Positions 35,375 through 44,420 of a stretch of 64,000 nt of DNA are shown one piece after another (position 1 is the first letter of the stretch; every line of letters starts with the position of its first letter). Location: positions 256,001 through 320,000 of the forward strand of contig CAWAOD010000009.1 of NCBI GenBank assembly GCA_963783575.1, in the 5' to 3' direction. The notes under the pieces are model-generated. The model saw only the letters and a program-made list of their open reading frames with translations, had not been told where the DNA came from and searched no databases. This DNA comes from an uncultured Spirochaetota bacterium (GTDB taxonomy: Bacteria; Spirochaetota; Brevinematia; Brevinematales; JAOACQ01). The translations under genes and the position numbers were made by a program.

Positions 35375-37065
35375 CAGACTGTGTGAAAACACAGTAAATA
35401 TGCTATAATTATTAGAACAAAAATAATCGGAGTAAAAGATGAAGCATATTGAGGGAGAATCAAGGGATCAGATAGTTCTGTTCAATGAAACACTGGAAGA
35501 TCTGTTAGGAGAAGAAGATCCGGTAAGGTTTATAGATATTTTTGTTGATAAGCTAAATATGAAAGGAGTTGGTTTTAAAGTAAAAGAAGCATCAACCGGC
35601 AGAAGTTCATATAAATCCGAAATACTTTTAAAAATCTATATTTACGGATATTTGAATAAAATCAGGACAAGCAGGAAATTAGAGAGAGAGTGCCGAAGAA
35701 ACACAGAGTTGATGTGGCTGACTGGACGACTAGCGCCGGATTTCAAGACGATTGCCGACTTCAGGAAAGATAATAAGAAGGGAATACAGTCGATATTCAG
35801 AGAATTTTTGAAGATATGTCATAAAGCCGGGCTTTTATCATTTGACGTTGTTGGAATTGATGGAACCAAGATCAGTGCGCAAAACCACAATAACAATGTT
35901 TATCATAGGAAAAACATAGAAGAAATCATACATAGAATAGATCAAAAGATCGAAGAATATTTGAATGAGATGGATAAGAACGATAAGGAAGAAAAGAATG
36001 AATTTGAATTTCTTTCCGGAAAGATAGCGGAACGTTTAAAGAAAATGAAAACAAAAAAGGATAAAGTTGAGGCTATTAAAAAGATTTTTGAGGGAAATCC
36101 TGAAATGGAGAAATATTATTCAAATGACCCGGAAAGCCGGTTTATGAATGATAAAGGGAAATCCGACATTGCATATAATCTGCAGATGGCAGTAGATGAT
36201 GCGAATAAACTGATTGTGGCGATTGATGTGACGAATGAAAACAATGATATCAAACAGATGGCAGGAATGTGTGACCGAGTAGAAGAAATAAAGGACGAGC
36301 TTAAGGTAGAGACTGAAACGGTCAAAGTATCGGATGCCGGTTATTACAGCGAACCGCAGATACTGGAATGTATAGATAAGGGACATAACGTATATATGCC
36401 GAATCCGGATGACGGACATAAGGCAAGGATTCGAGGCAAAGAAGATAATAAAGGAGTACCTGCTGAAGAATACCAGGTTGATAAATTCAAATATGATCCG
36501 GGACAAGATGTTTATTATTGTCCGGAGGGAAACCCATTAGTGAGAAATGGGAAAAAAGTAGAGAAGGTCAATGGAGGAAAAGAGATAGTCAGGTACAAGT
36601 GCGGCTTATGCAGCCAATGTGAAGTAAGAAATAAGTGTACTGAAAGCGTGGAAGGACGAAGTATCAAAGTACCAGTTAGAAAAGAAGAAATTGAGAACTT
36701 CAAGAGGAAAATTCGTTCTGAAGCCGGGAAAAAGATCATAGAGAAAAGGAAAGAGATATGTGAACATCCATTTGGATCGATAAAAAGGAATATGGGTTAC
36801 AGTTATTTTTTAATGAAGGGAAAGGATGGCGTTCTGACGGAATCCAGTTTGGCAGGATTCATTCATAATTTAATAAAAGTATTGAATATATTGGGAATAA
36901 AGAGACTTATGACTCTGGTTTGATGCTAATAAACCATCGTTTATCGTATTCGGATAGATTTTTTAAACTAAGATTTTTTTAGCTTGAAAAATATATCAAA
37001 AAATGGAGTTTTTGTATAATTAATCGATTTTACTATAAAATTTTACTGAGTTTTCACACAGTCTG
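35375..37065 (+). mobile_element. IS1182-family insertion sequence, copy 2 (1691 bp)
   Basis: Same terminal IRs and length as copy 1. Confidence 0.95.
35439..36923 (+). CDS. IS1182-family transposase
   Basis: Identical to 3562..5046 except SDAGY versus SDVGY. Confidence 0.95.
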   Translation: MKHIEGESRDQIVLFNETLEDLLGEEDPVRFIDIFVDKLNMKGVGFKVKEASTGRSSYKSEILLKIYIYGYLNKIRTSRKLERECRRNTELMWLTGRLAPDFKTIADFRKDNKKGIQSIFREFLKICHKAGLLSFDVVGIDGTKISAQNHNNNVYHRKNIEEIIHRIDQKIEEYLNEMDKNDKEEKNEFEFLSGKIAERLKKMKTKKDKVEAIKKIFEGNPEMEKYYSNDPESRFMNDKGKSDIAYNLQMAVDDANKLIVAIDVTNENNDIKQMAGMCDRVEEIKDELKVETETVKVSDAGYYSEPQILECIDKGHNVYMPNPDDGHKARIRGKEDNKGVPAEEYQVDKFKYDPGQDVYYCPEGNPLVRNGKKVEKVNGGKEIVRYKCGLCSQCEVRNKCTESVEGRSIKVPVRKEEIENFKRKIRSEAGKKIIEKRKEICEHPFGSIKRNMGYSYFLMKGKDGVLTESSLAGFIHNLIKVLNILGIKRLMTLV

Positions 37066-38580: not shown

Positions 38581-39009
38581 TCATTCCACATCCTTTATAA
38601 ATGAAATGATTCTGTCCCTAATTTCATCCCTGACTTTTCTTGTCTTATCAAGTTTTTCCTGATAGCTTCCGGTAAAGGACGCCGGGTCTTCGAATTCCCA
38701 ATGGAGCCTTTTTGTGATCCCCGGAAATATAGGGCATCTTTCACCATTTGCGCCGTCACAAACCGTTATGACATAGCTGTATAAATTTCCATTTTTATAA
38801 AAGTCAAAAACGCTTTTGGTTTTATTTCCTGAAATATCTATTCCTTCATCCTTCATGGCATCTATAGCAAGCTGGTTAAGACTTCCCGGTTCAAGTCCGG
38901 CGCTTTCAGCGTAATATCTATCACCGCCCAGACGGTTCAAAAGAGCTTCGGCCATCTGGCTTCGCGCAGAATTATGGACACAGACGAAAAGGACTTTTAT
39001 TTTATCCAT
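38581..39009 (-). CDS. arsC: Arsenate reductase, thioredoxin-coupled LMW-PTPase type
   Basis: [13 protein letters not shown]-loop; TVCD..ERCP resolving cysteines; HWEFEDP. Confidence 0.92.
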
Positions 39010-39121
39010 ATTGACCCCCTGTTTTAAAGTAATAATTAAAACTAATAATATTAATTATAATCAAAAATTGTTAGAAATTCATTAATTTTCCCATAATTTT
39101 TGTAATTTGATAAATATCTTA

Positions 39122-39277
39122 CAAGGATACGGATATACCTGTACGAAAGTATTCGATTTGAGTGCCGAGAATCTTTTTTAGCCTAAGGAACTGTTTTTGT
39201 CCGGTACAATGGCAGGTATAATTTTTATATCGTGGGTCTTTTGGAATGTATTAAACAGAACAGAGGAAAAATTGTAA
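39122..39277 (+). pseudogene. Possible decayed aminotransferase class IV fragment
   Basis: Frame reads ..DLSAENLF*PKELFLSGTMAGII.., resembling the E-x-F-x-(T/S)-G-T motif; internal stop. Confidence 0.25.
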
Positions 39278-39445
39278 TTGATGGCTATCAAAATTGCAAC
39301 CAATTCTCGAATAAATATGATTTTGAACCGGTTGATGAATCTGATCCCGTCAAATTAAAAGAAAAATTCTTTAAAGGTAATGATGTTTATAAAATCAACG
39401 GCGCTCATTGTATTATTACCTCAAGGAAAAAATAATTATTGCCCA

Positions 39446-40122
39446 TCAATTTTTCTGTTTATTTGCAGTCTTCAGTTTCTCAATCAAATCCAGCGCGCGC
39501 TGTCTTGCTTCCATTTCCTTATCGCTTAAAGGTCCAATCCATGGTTCTTTAATATTCCAGGTTAAATTGGTATCAATTAAGGGTTCTTCAAAAGCTCCGG
39601 GATCAAATAATTGATAATCCATAAAACTTACTGGTGTTTCCTGATATGAAGACCATATCGCCTTTTTAATCAATAGTCCGTCTTTAAACTGAAGATTGAT
39701 CAGCTTGACCTGCCGCCTGAATCTTTCAATATATTCGACAGGCAGGTTGTATAAATATGCATGCAGAGCATTCGTTCCTTTAATTTTTTTCCTATCGTCA
39801 ATGCCGTGCTCAAACAAAGCGATCAATGCCTCACCCGTTAAATGCCCTGCAGATTCAGGCCCTGCAAGTATTAAATACCTGATATTCGGATTGCCGATTA
39901 TATTGCATATCATTTTTTCAAAACCGATATTCGGGGTTTGAACTGTACCTGATAAAGCGGCCCCTGATTCAATACCAAGCTTTACAATATTATGAATATC
40001 ATCCGGGATTTTGTCTTCATCAGTGTTTAAAATCACAGCTAAAGCAACCGGCGAATAATCATTGCCGCGCATGTATCTTCCGGCCTCCGAGGGGTATGAG
40101 GGATTAGGTTCAACTTTAACAT
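39446..40122 (-). CDS. MtrA-like (tetrahydromethanopterin S-methyltransferase subunit A-like) corrinoid protein, soluble; 1-nt frameshift at codon 3
   Basis: GNDYSPVA, GTVQTPNIGFEKMICNIIGNPNIRYLILAGPESAGHLTG, IERFRRQV, PGAF match the MtrA pattern; ATG at 40122 gives MLKVEPNPSYP.. with one added A. Confidence 0.85.
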
Positions 40123-40163
40123 TTTATTTTCCTAAAATTATTAGATTCAATAATATTATTAAC

Positions 40164-41111
40164 TTACAGAATCGCATTGAATAAATACCCCGTCAACATA
40201 ATTCCAACCGCTACCACGCTGAAATAGATTATCAGCAGGCGAGGCTTTAAGACCTTCCTCAAAATAATCGCTTCCGGAAAAGACAATGCCGTAACGGCCA
40301 TCATAAAGGATAAAGCAGTCCCTATTGCCATGCCTTTATCCATTAAAACTTTTACAATCGGGATGATTCCGGCGGCATTTGAATATAGCGGTATGCCTAT
40401 TATAACCGCGATTGGCACAGCAAAAAAGTTTGAAGGCCCCGCGGCTTTTGATAGAAAATCCGCCGGCGCGTATCCATGCATAAAGCCGCCGATGGCTATT
40501 CCCACCAGAACATATGGCCAGACTTTCCCGATTATTTCGGAAACATAATCCCTTCCATAAATAAACCTGTCTTTCCAGTTCATTTTTTCAATTTTAGCAT
40601 ACCCGTATTTGATTTTATAAACATAATCCTCAACATGCTTTTCCAGTTTCATTCTTCCAATCGCCAATCCGCTGACAATAGCGATCACAATGCCGCTGGC
40701 AATATAAAGAACAGCGACTTTCCATCCGAAAAGGCCCCAGAGCATGATTAAGGCGACTTCATTGACCATCGGTGATGATACCAGAAATGAAAATGTCACA
40801 CCCAGAGGGATTCCTGCTTCAATGAAGCCGATGAAGAGGGGCACAGCCGAGCATGAACAGAAAGGTGTTACTATCCCCAGCAGGGCCGCAAGAATGTTGC
40901 CTACAAACTCCGGTACTTTTTCCAGTATTTTCTTTGTTCTTTCAGGTGGAAAAAAACTTCTGATAATAGCAATCGCAAAAATAATAACCGCAAGTAGAAA
41001 AAATATCTTTACAGTGTCGTAAATGAAGAAATTCAGCGCAGCCCCGATATGTGAATCCGGCTGAAGGCCAATTATTTTATAAACCAGCCGGTTAACAATA
41101 GTTTTCCACAT
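40164..41111 (-). CDS. arsP: ArsP-family (DUF318) permease
   Basis: LGIVTPFCSCSAVP, SSPMVNE, GIPLYSNAAG, ALSFPE. Confidence 0.9.
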   Translation of the reverse strand: MWKTIVNRLVYKIIGLQPDSHIGAALNFFIYDTVKIFFLLAVIIFAIAIIRSFFPPERTKKILEKVPEFVGNILAALLGIVTPFCSCSAVPLFIGFIEAGIPLGVTFSFLVSSPMVNEVALIMLWGLFGWKVAVLYIASGIVIAIVSGLAIGRMKLEKHVEDYVYKIKYGYAKIEKMNWKDRFIYGRDYVSEIIGKVWPYVLVGIAIGGFMHGYAPADFLSKAAGPSNFFAVPIAVIIGIPLYSNAAGIIPIVKVLMDKGMAIGTALSFMMAVTALSFPEAIILRKVLKPRLLIIYFSVVAVGIMLTGYLFNAIL

Positions 41112-41114
41112 ATT

Positions 41115-41347
41115 TTAAACTTTTAAGATTCTGATGATCTGATCTTTATCCAGAACCCTCCCTGCGCTTTTAACTATTCCATCTATAGCAAGCGCGGGTG
41201 TTGCCATCACGCCGAATTCCATAATCTTCTCAATTTCAGTAATCTTCTCGATTTCCGCATTTATGCCTGTTGCCGCGATAGCTTCTTTTGCGTTTGCTTC
41301 AAGCTTTTTGCAGTTAGCGCATCCGGAGCCAGAATTTGAATTTTCAT
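41115..41347 (-). CDS. Small CxxC thioredoxin-like protein (MTH895 type); 1-nt frameshift at codon 7
   Basis: With one added G: MKIQILGSGCANCKKLE..GVMATPALAIDG..SAGRV (77 aa); absent from the ORF track. Confidence 0.88.
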
Positions 41348-41358
41348 TATCAACCTCT

Positions 41359-42402
41359 CTAAATAAAACTTTTCTTTAATTTTAATGCGATGTTTACCAA
41401 TAAAACCATCACAGGCACTTCAATAAGCGGCCCGATAACCGCGGCAAAAGCCTGGTTTGAATCAATACCGAAGATGGCTACCGCCACAGCGATAGCAAGC
41501 TCAAAATCATTCGAAGCCGCCGAAAAGGAAACAGCCGCACATTGCTGATAATCGGCACCGGATTTTTTTGCAATAAAGAAAGTTGCGAACCACATTATAA
41601 AGAAATAAATTAAATACGGAACAGCAACCCTGATTACATCAAATGGAGTTTCTACTATAAATTTACCTTTCATTGAAAACATAACTATTATTGTAAATAA
41701 TAATGCGATCAGGGTTAGCGGGCTTATAAAAGGCGAGAAAACCTCATCAAACCATTCTTTACTTTTTATCTTTATCAATATAAACCGTGTAAATAGTCCC
41801 GCGATGAAAGGTATTCCAAGATAGATCATAACCGTTTTTGCGGATTCTAATATTGATATATTTACATTCAGCCCTTTTATCAGTCCTAATATGTTCAGGA
41901 AAACGGTAATAAATATAAAAATATAAAGTGCGTAAAACATAACCTGGAAAATAGCGTTAAAAGCGACAATACCGACACCAAGCTCCCTGTCGCCTTCAGA
42001 AAGGTCATTCCAGACGATAACCATCGCGATGCATCTCGCCAATCCTACAAGAATAACACCAATCATATATCCCGGATTATCCCTTAAAAATATTACAGCA
42101 AGAGCAAACATTATTAGAGGTCCTATAAGCCAATTCTGGATCAATGAAAGAAACATCAGTTTTTTATTCCTGAAAATTCTTCCCATTTCCTCATACTTCA
42201 CTTTTGCAAGTGGCGGATACATCATAATTATTAATCCTATTGCGATAGGAATGGAGGTCGTCCCGACCTGCAGCTTACCGATCCACACAGTTAAAGGTGG
42301 ATAAAAATAACCCAGAGCAATTCCAAAAGCCATAGCAATGAATATCCACAATGTGAGAAACCGGTCAATAAAACTGAGTTTTTTTGAAACTATAGTATCC
42401 AT
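41359..42402 (-). CDS. acr3: Arsenite efflux transporter Acr3
   Basis: [53 protein letters not shown]. Confidence 0.95.
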
Positions 42403-42548
42403 AATTTGCTCACTGTTTTTAAATCCATATTTTTCTCCTTAGAAATTATATTTAAAATCTAATTATGGATCCTATTTTATAATTTTATAATAAGTTTCAT
42501 ATTTCCACAACCATGGATTCAAGAACAATTTCATTAACCTGACCGTTT

Positions 42549-43328
42549 TTATCCCTTTAGTTTCTGGTATATACCTTTAAGCCTTGTTTGATAGATGCTT
42601 TTAATAGTTTCTTCATCTTCCTTTATCGGTTTACCCGGTATCAGGTCGATTGTTTCATCAAAAGACAACCCCGAGTCCAGATAAGTTTTCAGCGCTCCGC
42701 AGATCATTTTTTTAAAAGCAGCTTTAAAATCTTCCGCTGATAAACCCATGCCCAGGCTTATTTTTTTAATTTCTTCCCATTGAAACCAGAAATAAGTCGG
42801 CCCCATCGCAGTTAGAACAGCGTAAGCCTCAAGATTTTCTTCGGGGACAACCGGCGACTCGCCTAAAATCTCCAGGATCGCATATAGCATATTTCTATCA
42901 ACTACTGATAAGGCATTTGAATAAGATACCGGGTTGAATCCCGAATTTATTACAGAAGGACCGTTCGGAATAACTCGCGCAATCCTGTTGAAACCTCCCA
43001 GAAGTTCTGATAAATTTTTTATGGTAAATTTCGGTGCCAATGAAATGACAATCGAATCTTTTTTTAGCGAGGCTCCAATTTCAGGAAGCTCCTGACTGAT
43101 AACGGGCGGGTGAAGCGAAATAAAAACCAGGTCTTTAGCTGCCGGAGTTTTATTATCATTCTGATAGGTTTTGACATCCGGAAATTTTGTTTTGATTTTT
43201 TCCAAAACTTCCGGATCATTATCACTGACCGATATTTCACTGAATGTAATTCCTTTCTTCTTAAAAGCCTCCAAAAAAATACGCGTAATTCTGCCGCCCC
43301 CAATAAAACCAATAGTTCTGTCAATCAT
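42549..43328 (-). CDS. Pyrroline-5-carboxylate reductase-like NAD(P)-dependent oxidoreductase
   Basis: IGFIGGGRI Rossmann fold; ISLAP; RVIPNGP; AMGPTY. Confidence 0.8.
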   Translation of the reverse strand: MIDRTIGFIGGGRITRIFLEAFKKKGITFSEISVSDNDPEVLEKIKTKFPDVKTYQNDNKTPAAKDLVFISLHPPVISQELPEIGASLKKDSIVISLAPKFTIKNLSELLGGFNRIARVIPNGPSVINSGFNPVSYSNALSVVDRNMLYAILEILGESPVVPEENLEAYAVLTAMGPTYFWFQWEEIKKISLGMGLSAEDFKAAFKKMICGALKTYLDSGLSFDETIDLIPGKPIKEDEETIKSIYQTRLKGIYQKLKG

Positions 43329-43342
43329 ATGATTCCTCCATA

Positions 43343-43398
43343 TATATGATTATATACATATATGCACATATAATAATGTAACATTAATAAAATGTCAA
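43343..43398 (-). promoter_or_regulatory. Sigma70 promoter of the ars operon with an overlapping ArsR-type operator
   Basis: TTGACA(43398-43393)-17 bp-TATTAT(43375-43370); imperfect 14-2-14 inverted repeat tatatgattatata-ca-tatatgcacatata (43343-43372). Confidence 0.7.
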
Positions 43399-43583
43399 GA
43401 AAAAATAATTTTATTCTAATTTGGAACAAAGAACAAACTGCAATTTATGTTTACACCTGGATTTTATAATGAGCGAAAATCAGGTTGACTTATTTAATAT
43501 TTATGATTAGAATTTGTATATTAGAAAAGACCGGTGGCGGTTTTCCGGCAGCGGTCATTATGATTGAATATAGGAGGCGATTA

Positions 43584-44075
43584 ATGGAAGCAATTTATCA
43601 ATTTGTAATGAATGATATAGATGGAAAAAGTGTGCAGCTATCTCAATACCGGAACAGAGTGGTTCTTATTGTCAATGTTGCCAGTAAATGCGGTTTTACA
43701 CCGCAATATAAGGGCCTGGAAGAGCTTTACCTCAAGTATAAAGATAAAGGCTTTTATATCCTTGGATTTCCGGCTAATAACTTTATGGGCCAGGAGCCGG
43801 GAAGCAATGAAGAGATTAAAAACTTTTGTTCGCTGACTTACGGTGTTACATTCCCTATGTTTTCCAAGATTGATGTAAAAGGTATAAACATAGCTCCTCT
43901 TTACTCTTATTTAACCGATAAAAAGCTGAATCCGAAGTTTGGCGGTGATATAAGCTGGAACTTTAATAAATTCCTTATTGATAAAAAAGGAAATATCATC
44001 AACCGGTTCGATTCAGCTGTAAAGCCTGATGATCCGAAGCTTGTAAATGCAATCGAAGAAGCTTTAAAAGAATAA
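43584..44075 (+). CDS. Glutathione peroxidase family protein (Cys type)
   Basis: VNVASKCGFTPQY, LGFPANNF.GQEP, WNFNKFL; ATG at 43584 after AGGAGG. Confidence 0.93.
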   Translation: MEAIYQFVMNDIDGKSVQLSQYRNRVVLIVNVASKCGFTPQYKGLEELYLKYKDKGFYILGFPANNFMGQEPGSNEEIKNFCSLTYGVTFPMFSKIDVKGINIAPLYSYLTDKKLNPKFGGDISWNFNKFLIDKKGNIINRFDSAVKPDDPKLVNAIEEALKE

Positions 44076-44084
44076 TGTCGGTTT

Positions 44085-44420
44085 TTATTTTCCGGCGGCA
44101 CAACTCACGGTAGCGGCAAGTTCAATATCTTTTCCGTATTGATCAAAAGAGGGCAGTTGTACTAGGAGGCTTTTAAGGAAAGGGAATCTTATCAGTGCGC
44201 CGGGATCTATCTTATGGCAGACAAACTGGCCGAGTTTTTCCGAATCAATGAGGCCTGCTTCTTTTAGTTTCATAAGATGCCTGGATGCGTTGGACTGGTT
44301 CATCCCAAGGACTTTTTCAATCTCACAGACGCATAGCTTTCTTGTGTTTAAAAGATTAAGGATTCTGATTCTGTTTTCATCCGCCAGGGCTTTTAAGATC
44401 TTTATTAATTCTTTTGACAT
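44085..44420 (-). CDS. arsR: ArsR/SmtB-family repressor
   Basis: KALADENRIRIL..LCVCEI..QSNASRHL..L..AGL. Confidence 0.92.
   Translation of the reverse strand: MSKELIKILKALADENRIRILNLLNTRKLCVCEIEKVLGMNQSNASRHLMKLKEAGLIDSEKLGQFVCHKIDPGALIRFPFLKSLLVQLPSFDQYGKDIELAATVSCAAGK

Follow-up and report, generated by a model that had tools for sequence, protein, structure and literature searches.

A protein with the fold of MtrA, the corrinoid-carrying subunit of the Mtr methyltransferase, is encoded among arsenic-resistance (ars) genes in a stretch of 64,000 nucleotides (hereafter, the window) from an uncultured Spirochaetota bacterium (assembly GCA_963783575.1, contig CAWAOD010000009.1, positions 256,001 to 320,000). 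Its gene lies on the minus strand at positions 39446-40122 of the window. As judged from the neighbourhoods of its homologs, this MtrA-like protein belongs, as an accessory component, to ars operons that recur among strict anaerobes. Its subfamily is a real, ars-associated variant of a known corrinoid fold and has apparently gone undescribed. An earlier note, made from the sequence of the window alone, had proposed that a cobalamin methyl-carrier is repurposed here for an organoarsenic pathway.

Association with arsenic-resistance genes

For the homolog loci, 208 genome hits and 553 metagenome hits were ranked by similarity, and the top 80 of each list were retrieved together with 8 kb of sequence on either side. 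Reduction at 95% identity left 115 non-redundant loci, the window's own locus being excluded. The neighbouring genes were labelled by profiles built from these loci, and subsets of the labels were checked with Pfam and NCBIfam. Of 19 acr3 labels checked, 11 pass the cut-off, 7 belong to fragments or split genes that best match acr3, and 1, at locus L055, actually marks a BASS transporter and was removed before the counts. All 21 arsC labels best match arsenate reductase models, none of them above the equivalog cut-off.

A core ars gene (acr3, arsP, arsC, arsA or arsD) is present within 8 kb in 47 of the 115 loci (about 40%), a rate that may be overstated, since the loci were ranked by similarity to an ars-linked query. 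As a partial check on this bias, three of the six carrier loci first met in genome samples are ars operons; a seventh stretch from these samples holds broken fragments only. Leaving arsP aside, acr3, arsC, arsA or arsD is present in 38 loci. By chance, acr3 is expected in about 1% of loci (0.01 per locus, assuming two acr3 copies per 3.5 Mb). The enrichment of homologs beside ars genes, on which the earlier note had staked its proposal, is thus borne out. The note had also suggested looking for linkage to arsP and acr3; both do recur, but arsP is not the dominant partner (arsP-type genes in 24 loci, acr3 in 30). The remaining counts are 24 for arsE, 19 for arsC, 36 for arsR and 6 for hgcA. In 42 loci the flanks reach at least 5 kb in both directions; 20 of these are linked, and 16 have acr3, for which the binomial p is 8e-22, with no correction for kinship.

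The direct same-strand neighbours are mostly acr3 (20), arsC (10) and arsE (7), and the gene order is shuffled among the ars-linked loci. An arsP-type gene is absent in 16 of the 30 acr3-linked loci, partly owing to short contigs. Linkage spans seven named phylum-level groups, with at least 14 state changes on a quick tree of 72 rows. It is seen in 7 of 9 loci of Spirochaetota, 5 of 8 of methanogens, 3 of 7 of Actinomycetota, 3 of 5 of delta-type metagenome-assembled genomes titled 'Myxococcota', and the single loci of Verrucomicrobiota and Kiritimatiellota, as well as in 1 of 16 of Thermodesulfobacteriota and none of 4 of Chloroflexota. One of the three ars operons from the genome samples is a minimal operon, arsR-arsP-arsE-mtrA, at L174:9353-12105, where the MtrA protein is 47% identical and carries a C-terminal PF04060 Fe-S domain. 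No common gene context was found for the unlinked loci in the Pfam/NCBIfam survey of neighbours.

Two genes that stand near the MtrA-like gene in the window do not share in this association. A proC-like oxidoreductase gene occurs in only 3 of the 115 loci, and no GSHPx gene was found among the recurring neighbour clusters of the homolog loci. Since neither recurs, the proC-like gene and the glutathione peroxidase gene (gpx) were rejected as core partners and are not core electron donors; the part of electron supplier, earlier assigned to the NAD(P)H oxidoreductase, has to be withdrawn.

Other neighbours were also observed. Just downstream, mostly in Spirochaetota, there are radical S-adenosylmethionine (SAM)/SPASM genes nearest to TIGR04317 (below its cut-off) along with coenzyme A (CoA)-disulfide-reductase-like genes (loci L003, L023, L029, L039, L040 and L083). 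Genes for ArsM-like methyltransferases are located directly upstream of the MtrA-like gene at L020:1696-2415 and L034:4766-5485; the matching genome hits, with coordinates matched by hand, carry one in-frame TGA, so these may be selenoproteins.

Fold and cofactor site

Profile searches place the protein in the MtrA family, as the earlier note had expected (PF04208, 118.6 bits against a gathering score of 25, E 2.9e-34). It passes the model of the soluble subfamily marginally (NF002126, 166.3 against a cut-off of 161) and fails the MtrA equivalog (TIGR01111, 114.9 against 249.15), and no methyltransferase family match was found in the Pfam and NCBIfam scans. The AlphaFold model (pLDDT 84) has the Rossmann-type fold of MtrA. 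Foldseek matches it to 5LAA, the cobalamin-bound cytoplasmic MtrA homologue of Methanothermus fervidus, with an E of 4.3e-15, 38% identity and a TM-score of 0.89 normalised to the 5LAA target, and the probability for 5LAA/5L8X is 1.00.

The family search returned 1824 matching proteins, of which the best 119 others (57-79% identical, 222-251 aa), chosen without regard to the motif, served as the homolog set. The cofactor contacts listed in the available text of PMC4915002 were mapped onto them by alignment. It was observed that Thr53, Asn55, Gly57, Asn64 and His84 are conserved in all 119, and that the position of Tyr18 is Tyr or Phe in 119. The equivalents in the open frame of the window protein are Y17, T63, N65, G67, N74 and H94, the last being the cobalt-ligand His; Y17 precedes the first ATG that is in frame. 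Glu54 is the hydrogen-bond partner of the His ligand. Of the 119 homologs, 86 have Glu at this position and 32 have Pro; the window protein has Pro, and the lower-ligand linkage His84-Glu54-Ile111 is not found in it. Thus, the claim of a kept MtrA core stands for the motif that had been quoted and for its GH, but not for the Glu54 position. Because the MtrA fold, the His ligand and most of the nucleotide-tail contacts are kept, the protein likely binds a B12-type cofactor (cobamide), as far as alignment and model can tell.

The absence of a C-terminal membrane anchor, noticed earlier, was confirmed. A hydrophobic C-terminal anchor is lacking in the window protein and throughout a set of 121 tested proteins, among which the highest 19-residue Kyte-Doolittle mean is 0.61. 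In the window protein, the maximum over the last 80 residues is 0.29, and the model ends in a polar helix. The protein has a single Cys.

In fold, His ligand, nucleotide-tail contacts and solubility, the protein is like the M. fervidus homologue. It is unlike MtrA and 5LAA in an insertion of about 10 residues, a conserved soluble C-terminal extension, Cys for Ala63 (119 of 119 homologs), His for Ile111 (116 of 119) and the frequent Pro at Glu54. From the MtrA of the MtrA-H complex (5L8X, 8Q3V, 9QTQ-S) it is set apart by its separate clade, its ars context and the lack of MtrH in the host; by equivalog score, anchor and MtrH partner alike, it is not the MtrA subunit of the Na+-pumping complex.

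Some further features of the site were noted. Arg replaces the cobalt-ligand His in 1 of 115 homologs (L039:7998-8680). An obligate disulfide between Cys73 and Cys159 was considered and is unsupported, the two positions varying independently. The Glu or Pro state was likewise tried as a marker of ars linkage (21/32 against 14/40, p 0.017) and set aside, with only 3 changes on the tree and 1-3 independent pairs.

Distribution and relatives of the subfamily

The ars-type MtrA-like proteins form a clade apart from distant MtrA-family outgroup rows (99% Shimodaira-Hasegawa-like approximate likelihood-ratio support, quick tree). Their median identity is 70%, compared with 64% between the Acr3 proteins of the same pairs of loci, in a set selected by similarity. 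All the named carriers among the matches are uncultured anaerobes, with no cultured carrier among those names. The gene is rare and patchy. It was found in 6 of 301 Desulfobacterota genomes (sister forms included) and in 10 of 122 genomes of one Spirochaetota class, and only 1 of 60 relatives has a match, which is a broken copy.

Rare sister forms are fused to other domains: a 2x[4Fe-4S] ferredoxin (P0132), the PF04060 Fe-S domain (P0135), which we take to be of the CFeSP/RnfB type, TusA plus a Cys-rich tail, and a helix-turn-helix domain. The Fe-S fusions support redox cycling as a plausible property of the family. An apparent fusion of ArsC with MtrA (P0148) seems to be an artefact in which a frameshift joins two neighbouring genes, and it was not used. 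A sister group of about 425 aa (P0126/P0272-P0312; L173:8954-10633; L178:3637-5375) has a Cys-rich C-terminal domain, once fused to TusA; a small gene resembling this domain follows in two loci, and an Fe-S protein precedes in one.

Bacterial PF04208 domains outside the Mtr complex are also known from the fusions of MtrA with DUF4346 and with a thymidylate-synthase-like domain; these are more distant, are fused and fall outside the ars-type clade. The matches on plasmids are only distant forms of the DUF4346 type. Such a gene is seen on small Planococcus plasmids, one of which (L172:464-1840, NZ_CP013660.2) adds an ArsR/SmtB regulator and a cation transporter.

Bacterial MtrA homologues with about 40% identity and a mostly kept His84 were given no function in the available text of PMC4915002. 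In non-methanogens and Methanomassiliicoccales, soluble MtrAH pairs and fusions likewise contain an MtrA-like corrinoid domain outside the Mtr complex. They are accompanied by MtrH and presumed to serve one-carbon metabolism, a function described as hypothetical in the parts available of PMC6147122, PMC11291895 and PMC9635834; the protein described here, in contrast, has no MtrH in its host or among its recurring neighbours. HgcAB is similar in being a corrinoid protein with an Fe-S carrier in anaerobes of a similar host range, often among ars genes or ArsR regulators. However, HgcA has an unrelated fold (CdhD family), is membrane-bound and acts on mercury. ArsM and ArsI represent candidate reactions without homology to the MtrA-like protein. 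ArsM has a SAM-binding class I fold with several conserved Cys, whereas the MtrA-like protein has no multi-Cys arsenic site; unlike ArsI, a dioxygenase, its carriers belong to anaerobic lineages. No relevant paper linking MtrA to arsenic or ars operons was found in a literature search that left most subscription journals outside. The term 'arsenic' is absent from the available text of PMC11291895 and PMC9635834, and 'mtr' from that of PMC7438021.

The ars cluster of the window

The profile matches confirm the order and strand noticed earlier: a co-oriented run on the minus strand of proC-like, acr3, redoxin, arsP, the MtrA-like gene, a gap of 436 bp and arsC, with gpx on the plus strand and arsR on the minus strand beyond the operon promoter. 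The ProC-like NAD(P)-binding oxidoreductase (42549-43328, PF03807) is not a true ProC (TIGR00112, 96.7 against a cut-off of 196.75). It is followed by the arsenite exporter Acr3 (41359-42402; TIGR00832, 432.7 bits against 282.8), a CxxC redoxin of the ArsE/MTH895 type (41115-41347; TIGR00412, 90 bits against 62; PF13192) and an ArsP-family permease of 315 aa (40164-41111; PF03773, E 2.8e-80). The permease matches NF040736 and NF033936 below their cut-offs, and its family also includes non-arsenic exporters. From acr3 to the MtrA-like gene, successive genes are 11, 3 and 41 nt apart, so a single transcript is a reasonable inference for these genes. Beyond the longer gap lies a 142-aa ArsC-type arsenate reductase of the low-molecular-weight phosphatase (LMWP)/thioredoxin type (38581-39009, minus strand; PF01451, E 1.2e-15), for which the best NCBIfam model, TIGR02691, gives 115.7 bits, under the cut-off of 174.3. 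Inside the gap, a small open reading frame (ORF) of 67 aa is present on the opposite strand (39232-39435, plus); it has a weak Pfam match (E 0.013) and no relative in the host genome or the fetched homolog loci.

Upstream of the run, a sigma70-like promoter (43370-43398, minus strand) matches the consensus at 11 of 12 positions and is the top of 30 consensus matches, where shuffled sequences yield 20.9 +/- 4.7 matches in all. Just downstream of its -10 box lies an AT-rich palindrome of 22 nt (43342-43363), the sole perfect copy among three matches genome-wide at up to one mismatch. The promoter reported earlier is a strong one, but the operator is less certain: as a similar motif precedes only 3 of the 39 arsR genes in the homolog loci, the palindrome is only a plausible ArsR operator. 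The divergent gpx (43584-44075, plus strand; PF00255, E 1.9e-42) and an ArsR/SmtB repressor gene (44085-44420, minus strand; PF01022, E 2.1e-17) complete the cluster; the LCVC motif of the repressor is presumably the As(III) site. A large transposase-like ORF (35439-36923) is located about 1.7 kb from the cluster.

The copy of the MtrA-like gene in the window is not whole as read. The earlier note had treated 39446-40122 as one product, passing over two frameshifts. The interval is 677 nt long and is not one reading frame; the open frame gives 225 aa. Behind an AGGA ribosome site, the ATG at 40122 misses the frame of the domain by one base, the shift lying at an A-run; the residues that this ATG begins correspond to the N-terminus of 107 of the 119 homologs. 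The first in-frame ATG, at 40072, would give 208 aa and lose the segment that carries Y17. Similarly, the ATG of the redoxin gene at 41347 is one base out of frame, at a G-run. Frameshifts were also seen in fhs and in 6 of the 126 further gene bins that were checked in the host assembly, which fits errors of long-read sequencing, although rpoB and rpoC are whole; an assembly error is the likelier cause of the two out-of-frame starts. In addition, Cys159, kept in 119 of 119 homologs, is Ser in the window protein.

Host genome and carrier genomes

The host genome, about 90% complete, has one MtrA-family gene and no MtrH, these two being the subunits searched genome-wide; that no other mtr gene accompanies it was stated earlier for the window and holds within this scope. 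The same is true for a recognisable arsM, the best host match being 79 bits against a cut-off of 263. In its 4.9 Mb, acr3 is present as a single copy. The host also has cobS, ten B12-binding domains over cut-off, the corrinoid Fe-S protein (CFeSP) with its RACo activator, and hgcAB. The hgcA and hgcB genes (C9:485111-487076) lie behind a small CC-tailed regulator, which makes the host a candidate mercury methylator. A second, degraded cluster is found at C5:86797-92233, with two arsR, a proC-like gene, arsE, a truncated arsP, an arsC remnant and a transposase-like ORF on the opposite strand, without acr3 and without an MtrA-like gene.

Carriers were sampled for arsM and hgcA in 50 of the 80 genome loci, and 32 of the 50 have hgcA and 31 have arsM over cut-off. 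The MtrA-like gene is therefore not a plain substitute for ArsM. The arsM rate is 5/18 in ars-linked carriers against 26/32 in the others, a difference confounded by lineage. Among the 25 carriers grouped as delta-type from their record titles, 19 have hgcA and 18 have arsM; in the Desulfobacterota sample, 88 of 301 have hgcA and at least 82 have arsM, the latter a lower bound as 8 candidates per genome were scored. In the one Spirochaetota class, hgcA is present in 9 of 10 carriers against 55 of 112 non-carriers (p 0.018, kin not corrected), and arsM in 1 of 10 against 22 of 112. In the delta-type carriers, hgcA and arsM are raised alike, which points less to a partnership than to lineage, genome size or habitat. 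Both a partnership with hgcAB and a replacement of ArsM were considered and rejected, neither being specific against the phylum and class backgrounds, in comparisons uncorrected for genome size.

Possible functions

The reading we favour, tentatively, is that the MtrA-like protein is a cobamide methyl carrier acting on trivalent arsenic in one direction or the other, with methylation slightly favoured. Somewhat more doubtful is the wider proposal that the subfamily is an enzyme of anaerobes devoted to B12-dependent methyl transfer on arsenic. It would have been repurposed from the corrinoid subunit of the methanogen Mtr complex, would have spread through both bacteria and archaea, and would provide either an ArsM-independent route to methylarsenite paired with ArsP export or an O2-independent demethylase of methylarsenicals. 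In such a scheme, ArsR would induce the gene under arsenic, and the protein would bind its cobamide in the base-off/His-on state. The cobalt would be kept reduced by a ferredoxin-type Fe-S carrier or the ArsE redoxin, and Co(I) would be methylated by a housekeeping donor, either SAM or methyl-tetrahydrofolate from the Wood-Ljungdahl enzymes of the host. The methyl group would then pass to thiol-bound As(III) or methylarsenite (MAs(III)). The methylated product would leave through ArsP, which could export methylarsenite, and Acr3 would export the remaining arsenite. In the reverse direction, methyl groups would be stripped from methylarsenicals without O2.

Methylation is slightly favoured because MtaA offers a chemical precedent, export by ArsP is possible and the host lacks ArsM. 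Methylcobalamin-dependent arsenic methylation is known as a side reaction of MtaA (PMC13262295, available part), and ArsP is named a methylarsenite permease in the accessible text of 10.1101/2022.10.17.512643. What makes demethylation attractive is that the known C-As lyase, ArsI, works as a dioxygenase (PMC10579292, in part) and that a corrinoid-type transfer has been proposed for dimethylated arsenic (DMAs) in the portion available of PMC6776024.

Several observations weigh against a methyl carrier. A core ars gene is missing in 68 of the 115 loci, many of them short contigs, and in 22 of the 42 long ones, and the Thermodesulfobacteriota copies are mostly detached from ars genes (1/16 linked). 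No MtrH, MtaA-type methyltransferase or RACo activator recurs among the neighbours of the homolog loci. The presence of arsM in 31/50 carriers is a further such point, the two genes sharing a cluster in 4 loci. The Pro at Glu54 could weaken cofactor binding. By analogy with methionine synthase, a missing acid partner would be expected to loosen the His ligand and make reduction easier. With its single Cys, the protein has no multi-thiol arsenic site like that of ArsM and is a poor candidate for sequestering arsenic, a role that the earlier note had also entertained, for methylarsenite. The window copy itself may be damaged, given its out-of-frame start and the change of Cys159 to Ser. The MtaA route is described as not regulated by arsenic in the available text of PMC13262295, and strain ND132, which is hgcAB+/arsP+/arsE+, produced no methylarsenicals according to the part available of 10.1101/2022.10.17.512643; the analogy with HgcA for arsenic methylation is weak. 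The ars linkage and the corrinoid fold are thus retained from the earlier proposal, but an organoarsenic pathway is not singled out: acr3 is at least as frequent as arsP, no methyl donor or acceptor enzyme recurs, and arsM is present in many carriers.

A stand-alone gene without an enzyme partner would also suit a protective, ars-induced cobamide sink or chaperone, which would bind free or displaced cobamide without catalysis and would limit arsenic damage to B12 enzymes or suppress arsenic methylation by free cobamides. The gene is confined to anaerobes rich in cobamides, 32 of 119 homologs do without Glu54, and reactions of free methylcobalamin and cob(I)alamin with metalloids are cited in the available text of PMC13262295. 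Such a role is nevertheless unlikely, given that the Fe-S fusions suggest redox cycling and that the conservation, 70% against 64% for Acr3 in a similarity-selected set, is high for a passive binder. Equally improbable is a general thiol, sulfur or redox-stress protein of ArsR-type stress islands, not specific to arsenic, since the genes most often directly beside the MtrA-like gene, acr3 (20) and arsC (10), are specific to arsenic, and the redoxin and ArsF-family neighbours belong to families that bear ars names of their own. For it one can cite neighbours such as thioredoxins, CcdA-type, CoA-disulfide-reductase-like, CMD/AhpD, DGC, DCC1, superoxide dismutase and DsrE proteins, the sister form fused to TusA, the non-arsenic exporters in the ArsP_1 family and the half or so of the long loci without ars genes. 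A cob(I)amide reductase without methyl transfer, which would turn methylarsenate into methylarsenite for ArsP or arsenicals into volatile hydrides, needs electrons only; it fits the absent methyl-donor enzyme and the Fe-S fusions, and hydride generation by cob(I)alamin is named in a title cited in the part available of PMC13262295. However, methylarsenate reduction is reported to be common among anaerobes while the gene is rare (6/301 Desulfobacterota; 10/122 of the Spirochaetota class), and arsP-type genes are lacking in 16 of the 30 acr3-linked loci, partly short contigs, which makes this still less probable.

Far less credible than any of these is an accessory of the HgcAB mercury methylase, for instance in cobamide supply. 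It is true that hgcA occurs in 6 of 115 loci, once directly downstream, and in 32 of 50 carriers against 88 of 301 of the Desulfobacterota sample, and that the host has hgcAB. But hgcAB is already documented among ars genes (PMC7438021), hgcA is present in 55 of 112 non-carriers of the Spirochaetota class as against 9 of 10 carriers, most hgcA genomes have no MtrA-like gene, and the similar enrichment of arsM (18/25 against 82/301) points to lineage or genome size. It is just as hard to believe that the gene is a passenger without a role in the operon or is decaying in the host genome. The out-of-frame starts in two operon genes, the Ser at Cys159, the degraded second cluster without an MtrA-like gene and the single broken match in 60 relatives would agree with decay; yet across bacteria and archaea the family is intact and linked to ars genes in varying order, and the frameshifts in other bins and in fhs fit long-read errors, though rpoB and rpoC are intact.

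Significance

Anoxic soils and sediments both produce and remove methylated arsenic, and how DMAs is demethylated under anaerobic conditions is called unclear in the available text of PMC10579292. A small, soluble and conserved protein, probably of the B12-binding type, in the ars operons of anaerobes is a concrete and assayable candidate. Database entries name members of the family 'tetrahydromethanopterin S-methyltransferase subunit A', an annotation that can mislead metabolic reconstructions of uncultured bacteria. Even if its role were only protective, the MtrA-like gene would still be a new kind of ars gene.

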